This document shows, piece by piece, positions 2,259 through 22,166 of a stretch of 64,000 nt of DNA (the first letter of the stretch is position 1; each line of letters opens with the position of its first letter). Where the stretch lies: sequence record MN850651.1; one strand, written 5' to 3'. The position numbers and the translations under genes were made by a program. The notes under the pieces were generated by a model. The model was given only the letters and a program-made list of their open reading frames with translations, did not search any database and was not told the origin of the DNA. Source of the stretch: Escherichia phage moskry.

Positions 2259-2792
2259 TTATTTCAAAGTTGGGATAATAGAATCGAGATAAGCTTTAAG
2301 AGCAACTGCCTCATCTTTGTCTAATGTAATGATATGTTGACGAAGGTCATCAATTTGGCGAATAACTACGACATCACCATCTTCATAAGAAGGATTAACG
2401 CCTAGGACTGTTGTATAGTCAGGGCGGTCCTGATTTGTAATAAAAGCATTACGGCATTTAGCCCATTGAAGTTTGGCCTTTTTGGCTGTTTCAGATTCCA
2501 TTAATTCTTTCACCTTAGTGACAAATGTTTTCCAATTATTGATAGAAAAACATTCGTCTTCAGTTTCGATATTGGCTGCGTTGTAAAGACCAGGATAAAA
2601 ACGAACTTGGAGGTCTTCACCAATGTTAATTACCTCTCGACGACGTCCAGACGGATTGAGTTTCAAAATCTTGTCCAGTTCCATAGGAAGAATAGTAGCA
2701 GCATCATCTTCTTGTGTCAGAACATACACATAACCACGTTTTTCGATACATAAATCACCAAACAACTCGGTTGTTTCAATTACAGTTTTCAT
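2259..2792 (-). CDS. Hypothetical protein
   Basis: ORF track starts at TTG 2804; first ATG is codon 5 (MKTVIETT), giving 177 aa. Confidence 0.5.
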   Translation of the reverse strand: MKTVIETTELFGDLCIEKRGYVYVLTQEDDAATILPMELDKILKLNPSGRRREVINIGEDLQVRFYPGLYNAANIETEDECFSINNWKTFVTKVKELMESETAKKAKLQWAKCRNAFITNQDRPDYTTVLGVNPSYEDGDVVVIRQIDDLRQHIITLDKDEAVALKAYLDSIIPTLK

Positions 2793-2793
2793 A

Positions 2794-2973
2794 TTATTCA
2801 CCAATTAAAGTTTCAACAAAATTCACCAAATCATTCAGACAAGCATCAACCTGTTTTTCATAAAAGTCTTCGTTATCATTTACTGCGTGATAAGCTACAT
2901 CATTCAAATCCGAATCGGCTTCACGTAAGTCATGGATAAGGTCCATCAATTTATTAGCTTGTTCACGGGTCAT
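2794..2973 (-). CDS. Small acidic protein (59 aa), below ORF-track cutoff
   Basis: ATG at 2973; translation MTREQANKLMDLIHDLREADSD...; stop TAA overlaps next ATG (TAATATG). Confidence 0.35.
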   Translation of the reverse strand: MTREQANKLMDLIHDLREADSDLNDVAYHAVNDNEDFYEKQVDACLNDLVNFVETLIGE

Positions 2974-3099
2974 TTTACCATACTCGTTTCAATAAGATTC
3001 ACTATGCCGTTTACCATGTTATAAGTAAACATCGGATAATTGTATTGTACTACAACATAAGCGATAAGCAAAAGTTTCATTTTGTTCTCCGTTTGTTTT

Positions 3100-3139
3100 G
3101 ATAGGACTACTATAACATAGTCCTACCAAGATGTAAACT
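3100..3139 (-). promoter_or_regulatory. PeSL-like early promoter cassette
   Basis: Minus reading: GTTTACA, 17 nt, TATAGT; inverted repeat TAGGACTA/TAGTCCTA around -10; followed by leader CAAAACAAACGGAGAACAAAATG. Confidence 0.5.
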
Positions 3140-6151: not shown

Positions 6152-6690
6152 TCTTTTATTTCCAGTAGTTTATTTGATTTAAGGTAATTAGCCTTTTCTA
6201 GGACTTCAGAAGCATATTTACTTCCAGCACTCGTCTTCCATCCCGCATTATATGAGGATATAGCTTTTCTTATATCCCCGTTATGTATATTTAACCAATA
6301 AGAAAATTCTATATAAGCCCATCTGGCTGAATTAGACCGCTTAGATAGCATTTTCTTAATTTGGGCATCAGTCATATTGTAACCAAGCTGGTTAATTCTT
6401 GCCCTCATTGTTGGTAGATAATTTTGGAACATTCCATACGCATGGTGACCTTTCTTATCTTTAAGATTAATACCGGCAGATGATTCTTGCCATAGTATTG
6501 CGGCCATTATGTATCCAAGTCCTTTCTTATGCATATTTTCATGCGTTTTAAATTTTCCATCCTTAGAAAACTGTTCCCCAAACTGATAAGCATAATTCAA
6601 GTTATCGAGTTGGACATTACTAAAAGTATGCTCGGAGCTATGTGCTGATAATGAAAGAGCAAATAGACCAGCGAGTAGTGCTTTTCTCAT
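6148..6690 (-). CDS. Periplasmic lytic-transglycosylase (SLT)-like protein
   Basis: 180 aa; signal-like N-terminus; WQESSAG and YGMFQ motifs resemble the SLT catalytic-Glu region. Confidence 0.5.
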   Translation of the reverse strand: MRKALLAGLFALSLSAHSSEHTFSNVQLDNLNYAYQFGEQFSKDGKFKTHENMHKKGLGYIMAAILWQESSAGINLKDKKGHHAYGMFQNYLPTMRARINQLGYNMTDAQIKKMLSKRSNSARWAYIEFSYWLNIHNGDIRKAISSYNAGWKTSAGSKYASEVLEKANYLKSNKLLEIKE

Positions 6691-6698
6691 GTTTACCT

Positions 6699-7157
6699 CT
6701 AGATTTTAATCACTGCTTTAGAAGCTTTTCCTGGTAGTCGTTTACTGTTAATAATAGCCATTCTGCATTGAAGAGTCTTCATTTTGAATGCCGGATTTTC
6801 GCGACAAACTGTAAGTCCCAACCAAAGATTTCCATCAGTTATTTCTAAACGGCCTGGACGGTATTCGACACCTTCGACAAAATCTTCATCAACATCTGGA
6901 CGTGCCGGCATTGATAAAAATTCTGCAACTTCTTTAACATGATTTTTTACTTTACGAAATAATTCAAAAACGTAATTCTCATCTATTTCTCTCTGGATGG
7001 CACGATCTAAGAGATGTTGAGAATACTTGATATGAAAGCCTGGTAGTCCAAGAGACTTTGCAGCATCTTTTATACTGGCATTTATTTTGCGGAACTCCGT
7101 TTCAAAGATTCGACGGAGTTTATTACGGCGGATAAAAACTTCCGAATTGATAGTCAT
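6699..7157 (-). CDS. regB: Site-specific RNA endonuclease RegB
   Basis: 152 aa; ATG start; long identical stretches to recalled T4 RegB (MTIN.EVFIRRNKLRR, YSQHLLDRAIQREID, GVEYRPGRLEITDGNLWLG, LQCRMAIINS.RLPGKASKAVIK). Confidence 0.85.
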   Translation of the reverse strand: MTINSEVFIRRNKLRRIFETEFRKINASIKDAAKSLGLPGFHIKYSQHLLDRAIQREIDENYVFELFRKVKNHVKEVAEFLSMPARPDVDEDFVEGVEYRPGRLEITDGNLWLGLTVCRENPAFKMKTLQCRMAIINSKRLPGKASKAVIKI

Positions 7158-9288: not shown

Positions 9289-9618
9289 TTATACTCTAGG
9301 CTTTTGAGCTTGTTTGGTATTGGATTCCCATGCGGCTTTGGTAATTTTGTTAGCGGCATAACCAAAGGCATTAGATAGAACACCTTTAGAGTTGAATACA
9401 TCCAATCCAATAAGTACACCGGCTGTGTTAAATTTAGGAGCAAAGTACGCATTAGTTTTAGAAAGAGCTTTTTTCAATTCAGGGTCTTGAACCAAGCTAT
9501 CAAAAACACCTTTACTATTTACTTTATATGTTACTTTGGGATTTTTACCTTCTTCGATAGCAGCTTTCTGTTCCGCAGATAATGTAACTTCAGTGATAAA
9601 CTCCTGATATGTTTTCAT
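9289..9618 (-). CDS. Internal-protein-like (capsid targeting sequence) protein
   Basis: 109 aa; N-terminus MKTYQEFITE matches the recalled T4 internal-protein CTS (MKTYQEFIAE) with an L/I-x-E cleavage context. Confidence 0.6.
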   Translation of the reverse strand: MKTYQEFITEVTLSAEQKAAIEEGKNPKVTYKVNSKGVFDSLVQDPELKKALSKTNAYFAPKFNTAGVLIGLDVFNSKGVLSNAFGYAANKITKAAWESNTKQAQKPRV

Positions 9619-9643
9619 TTTGTTCCTATTGTTTTAATTTATG

Positions 9644-9958
9644 TTATTCTTTAGGGAAGTTTTTAGAGTATGCGTCATAAAGTTTATTACCGATGCGACG
9701 GAAGACTTTAGCTGCAAAACGGTTTTCAGGGTTTTTAATCATGATTTGCATCATGTAAGTTCCTGCATCCGAAAGAGCTTCTTCATAGTACCCATTAATT
9801 TCTTTAAGAGTCCTACGTTTACCACCAGGACCATCAACAGTAATTTTCCATTTACCTGTAGAAGTGCGGCTCGGTGGCTCAACTTGTTCAATCCAAATAT
9901 AACCACCTTCAACGCGTTGGTTGGCGGATTCTGCAATAAATTCTTTATACGTTTTCAT
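9644..9958 (-). CDS. Internal-protein-like (CTS) protein
   Basis: 104 aa; N-terminus MKTYKEFIAE; basic body. Confidence 0.6.
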   Translation of the reverse strand: MKTYKEFIAESANQRVEGGYIWIEQVEPPSRTSTGKWKITVDGPGGKRRTLKEINGYYEEALSDAGTYMMQIMIKNPENRFAAKVFRRIGNKLYDAYSKNFPKE

Positions 9959-9979
9959 TTTTGTTTCCTTGTTTGTTTT

Positions 9980-10019
9980 GATAGAGTAATTATACCATAT
10001 TAATACTTAAGCGTAAACA
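9980..10019 (-). promoter_or_regulatory. Early promoter cassette (PeSL-like)
   Basis: Minus reading: GTTTAC, about 18 nt, TATAAT; directly 5' of the CTS gene starting at 9958. Confidence 0.5.
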
Positions 10020-10021
10020 AT

Positions 10022-10282
10022 TTAAGCTTTACCGCCAGAAATAATTCCGAAGTTGTTAAAATCATATCCAATATCGTCAACATCTACTTTAGGACTTGCT
10101 ACAACATAAGCAATTTCACTACGTTTTGCATAGGTGTTGATTTCTTTACCATCGCCACCTAAGAAAGAATACCCATTACGTTTTAATGAGCCAAAGTCTT
10201 CCGCATCACCAATGAAAGCTTTAACTTTAAATTTAGGGTCTTTGGCATCTGCTTCATTGATAAATTCTTGATACATTTTCAT
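10022..10282 (-). CDS. Internal-protein-like (CTS) protein
   Basis: 86 aa; N-terminus MKMYQEFINE. Confidence 0.6.
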   Translation of the reverse strand: MKMYQEFINEADAKDPKFKVKAFIGDAEDFGSLKRNGYSFLGGDGKEINTYAKRSEIAYVVASPKVDVDDIGYDFNNFGIISGGKA

Positions 10283-10288
10283 TTTTCC

Positions 10289-10702
10289 TTAGTAAATTGA
10301 TTTACCATAGTATTTGTACCAAGTCGGACGTTGAGCAATTTTTTCATCTAAGCGTGCTTGACTTATCGCAATGGACGCTTCGGACGGGACATAATTATTA
10401 CGAAATTCGGCAGGGATGTCGGAAATATCCTGGACTGTCGTGTCCTTGATTTTGAAACCACGTTTCAAGCATTCAGCGATTAGCTCGATTTGTCGTAAAC
10501 GTAAAAATTCGAGTTTGTCGTAAAAGAATGTTACGTGACCTGTGCCTAAGATAAATGTTGGAGAGATTTTAAAATCCTTTACACGTTTACCGTTTTGAAC
10601 ATGTTTACGGACTGCACCAAATACGCGTGGTAATTCACGATACTCAGCCATAAGATGTTGGTCGGCCAGTTCAGAAACAAGTGTTAAATTGATACGGGTC
10701 AT
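10289..10702 (-). CDS. denV: Endonuclease V (pyrimidine-dimer DNA glycosylase)
   Basis: ATG at codon 5 of the ORF track; 137 aa; near-identical to recalled T4 DenV ([35 protein letters not shown]...). Confidence 0.9.
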
Positions 10703-10707
10703 AATTT

Positions 10708-10760
10708 CCTCCAAGTAGTTGATGAATGTATAGTATCAAAACCCTTGGAGGAAGTAAACA
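10708..10760 (-). promoter_or_regulatory. PeSL-like cassette with SD-containing stem (upstream of denV)
   Basis: Minus reading: GTTTAC, TACTAT-like -10; arms CCTCCAAG/CTTGGAGG, the latter being the denV SD. Confidence 0.5.
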
Positions 10761-11042
10761 CTATTTTTCTGAAGCGCCTGAAATATATTTTTCAAGACGT
10801 TGTTTCATTAGCGAGCCGTTCTTAGCGATTTCTTCCGGTTTATCGCACATACGTAACAAGGCTTCAAGCTTAGCGATATCGCTAGTACGTTCAAATTTGC
10901 GAGTATCTATCTTACTAGCAAGTTCAGAAATACGTGCTAGTAGACTTTCGGCTTCAACCAAAGCTGCACCTAGCTTAGTTGCAAATGTGTCAGTAGCTTC
11001 GTTAAGAATAGATTCTGATAAAAATTCACTATATGTTTTCAT
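10761..11042 (-). CDS. Internal-protein-like (CTS) protein
   Basis: ATG at codon 6 ([10 protein letters not shown]); 93 aa; 4-nt overlap with the 3' end of gene e. Confidence 0.55.
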
Positions 11043-18814: not shown

Positions 18815-18841
18815 ACCCCCTAATGGGGACCGAAGTCCCCA
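18815..18841 (-). terminator. Conserved stem-loop element (GGGGAC-CGAA-GTCCCC), copy 2
   Basis: Same CCCCCTAA-GGGGACCGAAG-TCCCCA unit as 446..472, again just 3' of a gene stop. Confidence 0.35.
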
Positions 18842-18845
18842 TTCT

Positions 18846-19478
18846 TTACTTACGAGTTTTTGCATACTGAGCAGCGTCAGCAGCCAAACGACCTGCCTGA
18901 CGAAGTTTTTCTTTAATCTCATCATGAAGTGGTTGAGTATACTTCAAACCTTCGATAGTCAAATAAAGACGATAAAGGTCTGGGGTATCAAGGTTGTTGA
19001 TATGTTGGCCATTACGAAGACTATTGAATTCACGAACGAGTGAAGATGTATCGGATTCAATATCACGAACAAGCGAAGATAGTTGTTTATATTTTTTTTC
19101 CAGGCTAGAAGTATCAAACTTAAGAGCAGGAGCTTTAGGAGTTGCTTTTACTTCAGGCTTAGGCTTAGGTTCAGGTTTTGCTATTGCTTTAGGGGTCGCA
19201 GGTTTAGGAATGGTAGGAGCAGGTTTTACTTTAGGCGAACCCGATTTAGCAGAAACACCACCACTAACAATATCTTTGAATGCTTTAGAAGCTCTGTAAT
19301 ATTCTTTTTGGCTGGAAGTGTCGATACCGTACATGGCTTGAACGTTTTTGAAAAACTCTGTACTAGTTTTTGTACCAGAAATAGCATCGTAAGCAGCTTG
19401 CCATTTCTCTTTTGTCATACGTACGCCGGCTTCGGTGATTACTTCCGTTTCGGCTAAAAATTCATTAAAAGTATACAT
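18846..19478 (-). CDS. Internal-protein-like (CTS) protein with Pro/Lys-rich linker
   Basis: 210 aa; N-terminus MYTFNEFLAE is CTS-like; central PKVKPAPTIPKPATPKAIAKPEPKPKPEVKATPKAP low-complexity tract. Confidence 0.55.
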   Translation of the reverse strand: MYTFNEFLAETEVITEAGVRMTKEKWQAAYDAISGTKTSTEFFKNVQAMYGIDTSSQKEYYRASKAFKDIVSGGVSAKSGSPKVKPAPTIPKPATPKAIAKPEPKPKPEVKATPKAPALKFDTSSLEKKYKQLSSLVRDIESDTSSLVREFNSLRNGQHINNLDTPDLYRLYLTIEGLKYTQPLHDEIKEKLRQAGRLAADAAQYAKTRK

Positions 19479-19513
19479 TGATGGTCCTTAGAAAGTGGGT
19501 TTATTGTTTACTA

Positions 19514-19521
19514 TATTTATA
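19514..19521 (-). promoter_or_regulatory. Late promoter (TATAAATA on minus strand)
   Basis: Plus strand TATTTATA about 36 nt upstream of ATG 19478. Confidence 0.5.
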
Positions 19522-19522
19522 C

Positions 19523-19550
19523 AAAAAAGCCCCAACCTTTCGGAAGGGGC
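19523..19550 (-). terminator. Intrinsic terminator at the end of the tRNA cluster
   Basis: Stem GCCCC/GGGGC with a 6-A run on plus strand (U-run on the minus transcript). Confidence 0.6.
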
Positions 19551-19593
19551 TATATACCTTGTCGGGGTTCCACCTGCTAAGGCAAGTGTTTGT

Positions 19594-19685
19594 ACGAAAC
19601 GCCGGGATTCGAACCCGGTTATTAAGTAGTTGACGCTACTCAATATTTTTAAAAGGCCATATCTCGACCATATCCGAACGTTCCG
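19594..19685 (-). ncRNA. tRNA-like structured RNA (type II tRNA, pseudo-tRNA or rnaC/rnaD-like)
   Basis: Canonical T-arm CCGGG-TTCGAAT-CCCGG; 7-bp acceptor pairing CGGAACG/CGTTTCG; 6-bp variable-arm-like stem; the anticodon arm does not fold canonically (12-nt loop). Confidence 0.3.
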
Positions 19686-19853
19686 TCAAAAACGCTACTC
19701 GGCTTACGGCAAAGATATTTCCTCGAATCGATAATTCGGTGCGCCGTTTCTGCTGTGATGTAAGGGGATATTAACAAATCGTAAAGATTTATTAAGACCA
19801 GTCCTTACTCAGGGAACATCAGTCCGACGACTTACCGGTAGCGACCCGGCTTC

Positions 19854-20198
19854 TTATTTTGACATATCATCAATTTGCTCTCGACGCCGACGCCATAGAT
19901 TAATCGCTTCATTAACACATTCGGCGTTTGGTATATGACGGCAATAATATAATGATTCGCGTTTCTGGAACCGATGTTGCAATGGGATTTCGTTTAAAAG
20001 GTCTTTACGGTCAAAGTATTCAAAACTAGTTAACCCAGAACGGTTTTTAAGGAACTTCCAATGACCGAATTCATTTTGAACATAGATGTAATCTGCATGT
20101 TGGTATAACAAATTAATCAATCGGTCTGAAATAACTGTATCATGTTCGTTAAAATAAAACGTTAAATCATGAACTACTAAGTAAACATTACCTTTCAT
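19854..20198 (-). CDS. Hypothetical protein within the tRNA cluster
   Basis: ORF track start at 20246 overlaps tRNA-Arg; ATG at codon 17 (MKGNVYLVV) gives 114 aa. Confidence 0.4.
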   Translation of the reverse strand: MKGNVYLVVHDLTFYFNEHDTVISDRLINLLYQHADYIYVQNEFGHWKFLKNRSGLTSFEYFDRKDLLNEIPLQHRFQKRESLYYCRHIPNAECVNEAINLWRRRREQIDDMSK

Positions 20199-20216
20199 AT
20201 TTTCCTCACTTGAAGT

Positions 20217-20293
<77 letters not shown>

Positions 20294-20299
20294 AATATA

Positions 20300-20373
20300 T
20301 GACCCAGACCAGATTCGAACTGGTAACCTTTCCCTTATGAGGGGACTGCTGCTAACCATTGAGCTACAGGGCC
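20300..20373 (-). tRNA. tRNA with CAU anticodon (Ile or Met type)
   Basis: 74 nt; T arm ACCAG-TTCGAAT-CTGGT; anticodon loop CTCATAA; acceptor GGCCCTG/CTGGGTC with one mismatch; CCA not encoded. Confidence 0.65.
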
Positions 20374-21878: not shown

Positions 21879-22166
21879 TTACAGAAGAGTTTTTGCAATA
21901 ATTTTAAGCTGAGCTACAGAAATATGCTTAGCTTTAAACAGTGCAGTCTCTTCAGCCGGAGAGATAACAATAGTAGCGCCATCTTTCTTAGCAGACCATC
22001 CATCCCCTAAGTAAACAGTACCTTTTACTTCTTCGCCGTCAACCAGGCCAATCATTGGTTTACCCTCACGTCCTTTATTTGCTTTAATAACTTCGGAAGT
22101 AAGGGTTGCTTCGGTTAGAGTAGAAACATTAGCATCAGGTGATATAAATTCTTTATAGGTTTTCAT
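21879..22166 (-). CDS. Internal protein I-like (CTS) protein
   Basis: 95 aa; N-terminus MKTYKEFIS; adjacent to 57B as ipI is in T4; length matches recalled T4 IPI. Confidence 0.55.
   Translation of the reverse strand: MKTYKEFISPDANVSTLTEATLTSEVIKANKGREGKPMIGLVDGEEVKGTVYLGDGWSAKKDGATIVISPAEETALFKAKHISVAQLKIIAKTLL

Follow-up and report, generated by a model that had tools for sequence, protein, structure and literature searches.

The gene of interest is an open reading frame (ORF) at 18846..19478 on the minus strand of the window (the whole 64-kb stretch of DNA analysed), with an ATG start and 210 encoded amino acids followed by a stop codon; the original prediction, which had read its N-terminus as MYTFNEFLAE, was confirmed in this respect (Table 1). 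The 1-kb stretch around the gene showed 98–99.6% identity with Mosigvirus genomes (e.g. vB_EQ1 and vB_EcoM_G2469), and the source phage of the window is a Mosigvirus, an RB69-like T-even coliphage of the T4 family. Codon comparison with orthologs supported the coding call, with 7 synonymous and 2 non-synonymous differences to the vB_Eco_mar005P1 gene and 6 synonymous and 4 non-synonymous differences to that of G2469.

Table 1. Features of the 210-aa gene, its product and its flanks, with positions in the window.
Feature	Position	Strand	Basis
C(UUCG)G tetraloop hairpin	18822..18843	-	directly 3' of the stop codon; no U-run on the coding strand
CDS, phrog_2280 member	18846..19478	-	ORF call, profile match, ortholog codon comparison
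C-terminal helical module C1, residues 119-210, three helices, KFDTSSL.KKY...NNLDTPDLY	18849..19124	-	AlphaFold2, alignment
Pro/Lys/Ala-rich disordered basic linker, residues 76-118	19125..19253	-	composition, pLDDT, indels
N-terminal helical module N1, residues 17-75, RMTKxKW...MYGIDTSxQKEYY...AFK	19254..19430	-	AlphaFold2 helices, conserved columns
TEVITE, residues 11-16, second predicted gp21 site ITE↓A	19431..19448	-	conserved motif, IPI context
Capsid targeting sequence MYTFNEFLAE, residues 1-10, predicted gp21 site LAE↓T	19449..19478	-	match to T4 IPII/IPIII
Shine-Dalgarno AAGGA	19485..19489	-	6 nt 5' of ATG, read from sequence
Late promoter motif, T4-type, exact TATAAATA	19514..19521	-	35 nt 5' of ATG
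Intrinsic terminator, GNRA-loop hairpin + U6	19523..19551	-	fold, conservation, G2469 annotation
rnaC homolog (T4 stable RNA)	19593..19731	-	99.3% identical to T4, by alignment
rnaD homolog (T4 stable RNA)	19738..19857	-	87.6% identical to T4, by alignment

Two tRNA genes lie upstream, at 20217..20373. The original prediction had a terminator separating this tRNA cluster from the ORF; the terminator is indeed present, but the interval also holds an ORF of ~115 codons and homologs of the T4 stable RNAs rnaD and rnaC. The terminator is formed by the stem-loop GCCCCUUCC-GAAA-GGUUGGGGC followed by U6 (MFE -16.5 kcal/mol, z = -3.1), is conserved with T4 and RB69 and carries a terminator annotation in phage G2469; a simple terminator scan missed it because of two U-U mismatches in the hairpin. 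It closes the tRNA/rnaD/rnaC unit just 5' of the 210-aa gene, and the late promoter motif begins one base beyond it. Since the T4 and window sequences part exactly past this terminator, we interpret the 210-aa gene as an inserted cassette, with the rnaC terminator on one side of it and the e.8/e.6 region on the other. Rfam searches of the upstream region returned the two tRNAs only, with no match to the rnaC and rnaD homologs even at a permissive E-value threshold, and ARAGORN did not detect these homologs either; both bear a tRNA-like T-arm. It is striking that rnaC should be nearly identical in T4 and an RB69-like phage when the flanking genes have diverged so far. A program-called ORF of 130 aa with a TTG start (19854..20246, minus strand) overlaps tRNA-Arg (20217..20293), and because related genomes annotate a 345-nt CDS of the RB69 ORF150c type there, its true start is probably an internal ATG.

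The exact late promoter that had been claimed upstream of the gene was found again as TATAAATA, a motif occurring 18 times in the 64-kb window compared with 8.0 +/- 3.0 times in shuffled sequence. In 9 of the 10 orthologous loci examined it recurs, exactly or with one mismatch, at -35 to -42 from the start codon (JS98, fHe-Yen9-01, PG7, CBH8, Marfa, Q7622, Kosakonia 305, RB69 and a metagenomic contig), and it is absent directly upstream of the family member L015. The promoter motif thus points to late expression of the 210-aa gene, as for internal proteins (IPs) bearing a capsid targeting sequence (CTS). The C(UUCG)G hairpin behind the stop codon (-15.5 kcal/mol, z = -2.2), which the terminator scan picked up on the plus strand, is probably a 3' stabilising hairpin or a weak terminator.

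The leader of the protein was compared with that of T4 IPII and IPIII, MKTYQEFIAE. The first 10 residues of T4 IPIII are enough for packaging, and amber-suppressor experiments have defined the roles of individual CTS positions, residues 4 and 7 weighing most in targeting and residues 8 and 10 in cleavage by the prohead protease gp21 (reviewed in PMC9026906). At all four of these functionally mapped positions the leader MYTFNEFLAE carries identical or conservative residues (F4, F7, L8 and E10), which bears out the earlier description of it as CTS-like; position 2 is Tyr, where Lys is usual. When the strict pattern M..[FY].[ED][FI][LIV].E was applied to the Met-started frames of the 64-kb window, 5 frames matched (0.02 expected from shuffled N-termini), one being the 210-aa ORF and the other four the small IP-like ORFs at 9289..11042. 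Alignment of 17 diverse members of the family showed that the leader is retained together with at least one [LI]-x-E site despite strong divergence of the bodies, and that most members keep an [LI]-x-E-[AS] motif; the second such site of the window protein, ITE↓A at residues 14-16, resembles the T4 IPI cleavage context STITE↓ATL. By these motifs the 210-aa protein qualifies as a CTS bearer of the T4 type. A weak similarity extends beyond the CTS, with residues 17-26 of the ORF resembling residues 15-24 of T4 IPIII, ...(R/K)(M/G)(T/I)(K/N)K(E/D)(K/E)W, and R20, T22 and W26 are almost invariant in the family; this stretch may be an extended core-binding or cleavage context, or the similarity may be due to chance.

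The precursor has a mass of 23.4 kDa and a pI of 9.5. Its leader holds 4–5 acidic residues, and the predicted mature protein without the leader has a pI of 9.7–9.8 (35 Lys+Arg vs 21–23 Asp+Glu), basic like the mature CTS-bearing IPs. An AlphaFold2 model built with a 12-sequence alignment upheld the proposed layout of a Pro/Lys low-complexity tract of about 40 residues between two helical regions, the tract lying at residues 76-118 and the helices within residues 23-72 and 124-208. The N1 module was predicted to form helices at 23-31, 39-50 and 57-72 (pLDDT 80–87) and the C1 module, the best-conserved part of the family in the alignment, helices at 124-155, 166-179 and 182-208 (pLDDT 78–86); residues 74-116 had a pLDDT below 50. 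The linker, SAKSGSPKVKPAPTIPKPATPKAIAKPEPKPKPEVKATPKAPA, comprises 43 residues, among them 12 Pro, 10 Lys and 2 Glu, and has a pI of 10.4. It is indel-rich in the family alignment, and it contains a CCTAAG x2 repeat (encoding Pro-Lys) whose copy number differs from that in vB_Eco_mar005P1 and G2469, which suggests that slippage may drive the variation in linker length. Tandem CCTAAG duplication sites were located in the linker coding region at 19104..19121 and 19155..19175 (minus strand).

Database searches with the 210-aa protein gave no significant match in Pfam and no similarity to solved structures in a PDB sequence search. Foldseek gave no match with E < 1 against the PDB and its own family only against BFVD, and the fold searches overall returned generic coiled-coil or helical-hairpin matches only. 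An NCBIfam match to TonB was rejected, its score of 20.9 bits standing against a cut-off of 315 and its alignment covering the spacer region only; the two proteins share the alternating Glu-Pro/Lys-Pro composition (KPEPKPKPE), whereas the 210-aa protein lacks both the membrane anchor and the C-terminal domain of TonB, so that the likeness is one of composition.

The protein belongs to phrog_2280, a family of unassigned function (E = 4.7e-58; residues 1-205 aligned to profile positions 1-178 of 178). A tblastn search with the ORF matched 143 phage records, and members were found in at least seven genera related to T4 (Mosigvirus, Dhakavirus, Winklervirus, Tegunavirus, Karamvirus, Kanagawavirus and Marfavirus). 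Synteny was conserved, the gene lying at every locus examined just 3' of the tRNA cluster (the tRNA/rnaC unit) and 5' of the e.8/e.6 homologs. No record of T4 or any other Tequatrovirus occurred among the 60 matches listed of the 143, and the family appears to be absent from T4. In a profile search of 1.84 billion protein representatives only 14 clusters matched, 13 of which resemble T4-like phage proteins by sequence (the context was checked for P0025 and P0026 only); the fourteenth was rejected as spurious, being a repetitive protein matched via the low-complexity linker, whose repeat presumably resembles acyl-carrier-protein units. The RB69 reference (NC_004928, 73428..73990, minus strand) holds a diverged member that a frameshift divides into ORF149c and ORF148c; either this is a pseudogene or the reference was sequenced with an error.

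Comparison of the members pointed to an exchange of parts. Between Karamvirus PG7 and the Enterobacter phage Q7622 (Kanagawavirus; family member at 2501..3112 of locus L008) the N modules are 93% identical and the C modules have no detectable similarity. The second C module is common to Q7622 and P0023, a third occurs in P0026, and in P0025 and P0027 a different N module is joined to the usual C module, giving three unrelated C modules and two N modules in all; none of the alternative modules received a Pfam or functional PHROG assignment. The N and C modules have thus been exchanged independently around the linker and between phage genera. Because the tract is kept in all members and is at the same time variable and indel-rich, it looks like a tolerant joint for such exchange. 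To judge from these comparisons, the family is accessory, fast-evolving and patchy in its distribution.

The T4 internal proteins provide the nearest points of reference. Like the 210-aa protein, T4 IPIII (193 aa) is basic, late-expressed and present in virions, and its 10-residue leader has the same layout (MKTYQEFIAE vs MYTFNEFLAE), with weak similarity as far as about residue 25, ...K(D/E)(E/K)W. The mature parts, however, have no detectable homology (BLASTP aligned residues 1-26 only, and hhalign gave a probability of 25%), IPIII has neither a Pro/Lys linker nor a two-module build, and its locus lies between e and denV, whereas the 210-aa gene lies between rnaC and the e.8/e.6 region. Homology to IPIII or IPII was rejected, as pairwise and profile comparisons aligned the leader region only, and tblastn with T4 IPIII and IPII found no homolog in the 64-kb window, a result that at first raised the idea of the 210-aa gene as a ‘large IP’ substitute. 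Mosigvirus G2469 carries both a 210-aa-type gene and an IPIII 91% identical to that of T4, so that functional replacement of IPIII through mutual exclusion was also rejected and the two proteins are neither orthologs nor simple replacements of each other. Since the similarity to IPIII ends at about residue 25 and the two genes co-occur in G2469, we place the 210-aa protein in the CTS functional class and outside the IPIII sequence family. With T4 IPI, IPII and Bas37_0260 it shares a CTS-type leader, gp21-type cleavage motifs and the status of an accessory, variable T-even gene, yet those are single-domain proteins of ~85–110 aa, half the length of the 210-aa protein, in which a disordered linker joins two exchangeable modules. 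The window also encodes a true homolog of IPI, at 21879..22166, with 87% identity to the T4 protein.

The original prediction had suggested that the product may be packaged and had named virion proteomics as a check, which published mass spectrometry (MS) on a near-identical ortholog effectively supplies. Five proteins were detected by nanoLC-MS/MS in CsCl-purified virions of vB_Eco_mar005P1 (Mosigvirus): the tail sheath, a prohead core protein, the major capsid protein, a packaged ADP-ribosyltransferase and the hypothetical protein MAR005P1_00015, which the authors did not present as a CTS-bearing internal protein (Michniewski et al., PMC6563131). In the corresponding GenBank entry (LR027390.1) MAR005P1_00015 spans 6284..6910 and bears the note ‘confirmed structural protein by MS’, and the locus matches that of the 210-aa gene, 3' of tRNA-Met/tRNA-Arg and 5' of frd.3/e.6. 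The protein is identical to the window protein at 206 of 208 residues; the two differ by Q27R, E187A and a Pro-Lys dipeptide equivalent to a single copy of the CCTAAG repeat. Virion presence, another mark of CTS-bearing IPs, is thus documented through this ortholog. Its detection in a shallow proteome of five proteins is consistent with a high copy number, though the MS places the protein in the particle and is silent on location, copy number and processing. A second independent virion proteome was sought for Yersinia phage fHe-Yen9-01, Kosakonia phage 305, JS98 and Jiaodavirus, and nothing usable was found for these.

Taken together, these data make it very probable that the product of the 210-aa gene is an internal head protein of the T4 ‘IP’ class, present in abundance and delivered by the T4 IP pathway. 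As we envisage it, transcription would take place late only, from the TATAAATA motif just past the terminator of the upstream tRNA/rnaC unit, and the N-terminal 10-residue CTS would carry the protein into the gp22 scaffolding core of the prohead. There gp21 would cut off the leader after Glu10 (LAE↓T) and/or Glu16 (ITE↓A), leaving a basic mature protein (~21 kDa, pI ~9.7) that would remain with the DNA in the filled head and be ejected with it into the next host. We infer core targeting and gp21 cleavage, as well as internal location and ejection with the DNA, from the CTS and by analogy with the T4 precedent. The protein is built of a leader, a helical module, an extended Lys/Pro-rich linker and a further helical module, with the modules exchanged between genera. 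It adds a new member, as yet without a name, to the known CTS class of internal proteins, in which its two-module architecture is unusual. As had been proposed, this architecture also sets it apart from the small IP-like genes (86–109 aa).

A different emphasis falls on the linker, by which the product would be a packaged DNA-binding or charge-neutralising protein, its Lys/Pro/Ala tract lying on the condensed genome in the manner of a histone-H1-type tail, where it would help the packing or shield the incoming DNA in a non-specific way. The 43-residue tract has regularly spaced Lys and a net charge near +8, every family member retains a basic Pro/Ala/Lys tract despite the varying sequence and length, and the T4 IPs are themselves basic and have long been assumed to bind DNA (PMC9026906). 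This evidence is one of composition, however; no DNA-binding fold was detected, Pro-rich tracts also act as inert spacers, and the sole database match of the tract was a TonB spacer far below threshold. We therefore regard DNA binding as possible, if somewhat doubtful, as the principal role, and it can be reconciled with the IP-class explanation as a sub-function of the same protein.

Less probable, and in our view unlikely, is a main role as a head-assembly or scaffold accessory comparable to T4 IPIII, in which the protein would play no part in the infected host and its coiled-coil-like C module would attach to the gp22 core, helping to shape prohead assembly or to make it faster. The C module is predicted to form long antiparallel helices of a scaffold or coiled-coil-like appearance, a prohead core protein was detected by MS together with MAR005P1_00015, and mutants of T4 IPIII show slower head assembly and polyheads, the IPs co-purifying with gp22 (PMC9026906). 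Against this, T4 and many relatives lack the family and RB69 apparently has it in frameshifted form, so that assembly cannot generally require it; modules are swapped between genera, which would be unusual for a part that has to fit a conserved core; and in G2469 the gene co-occurs with a true IPIII. That the protein is instead an external or non-head virion component (a capsid decoration or a neck or tail accessory) with an incidental likeness to a CTS would suit MS data that show presence in the particle and not position, but is highly improbable given a family-wide conserved leader whose functionally mapped positions all fit the CTS, and a gene located in the accessory tRNA/e region outside the tail, neck and decoration gene clusters.

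For an internal head protein of the IP class, the pattern of module exchange suits a fast-evolving accessory protein engaged in an arms race with the host, and not a core component of assembly. Internal proteins enter the host with the genome, ahead of any phage gene expression, and are for this reason prime candidate inhibitors of immediate host defences. Few have known targets: among CTS proteins there are precedents in IPI, which acts against GmrSD, and more recently in Bas37_0260, which acts against McrBC, and T4 IPIII is needed on ECOR17. By analogy with these proteins, the ‘effector’ role originally suggested for the 210-aa protein is plausible, and our best guess is an anti-defence activity after ejection, most likely directed at a first-response host defence; because no functional domain was recognised, the analogy is what this proposal draws on. 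Points against the IP-class explanation are that the gene sits at a locus other than that of the classical ip genes, that the member L015 lacks the late promoter motif directly upstream and that residue 2 of the leader is Tyr. A bolder and rather improbable extension would see the family as a modular delivery platform, in which a conserved CTS and two exchangeable helical modules, with the Lys/Pro tract riding on the DNA, would let T-even phages outside the T4 genus combine injected anti-defence activities, each module being aimed at another first-response system of the host, for example type IV restriction of arabinosyl- or otherwise modified hmC DNA.

The phrog_2280 protein is annotated everywhere as a ‘hypothetical protein’ and is apparently an abundant virion protein in RB69-like phages and in several further genera from which phage therapy collections draw. 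Seen as a CTS protein whose two modules can be swapped, it offers a concrete candidate for screens of host range and anti-defence activity, and its two-module build a natural scaffold for the packaging of foreign proteins.

The four small ORFs with CTS-pattern leaders (9289..11042, minus strand) encode 109, 104, 86 and 93 aa, and their canonical leaders include MKTYQEFITE, MKTYKEFIAE and MKMYQEFINE. None is homologous to T4 IPII or IPIII. They flank denV, which is the classical T4 ipII/ipIII neighbourhood, and the 93-aa ORF carries a 16-residue two-site leader identical to that of the JS98 ortholog of the 210-aa protein.
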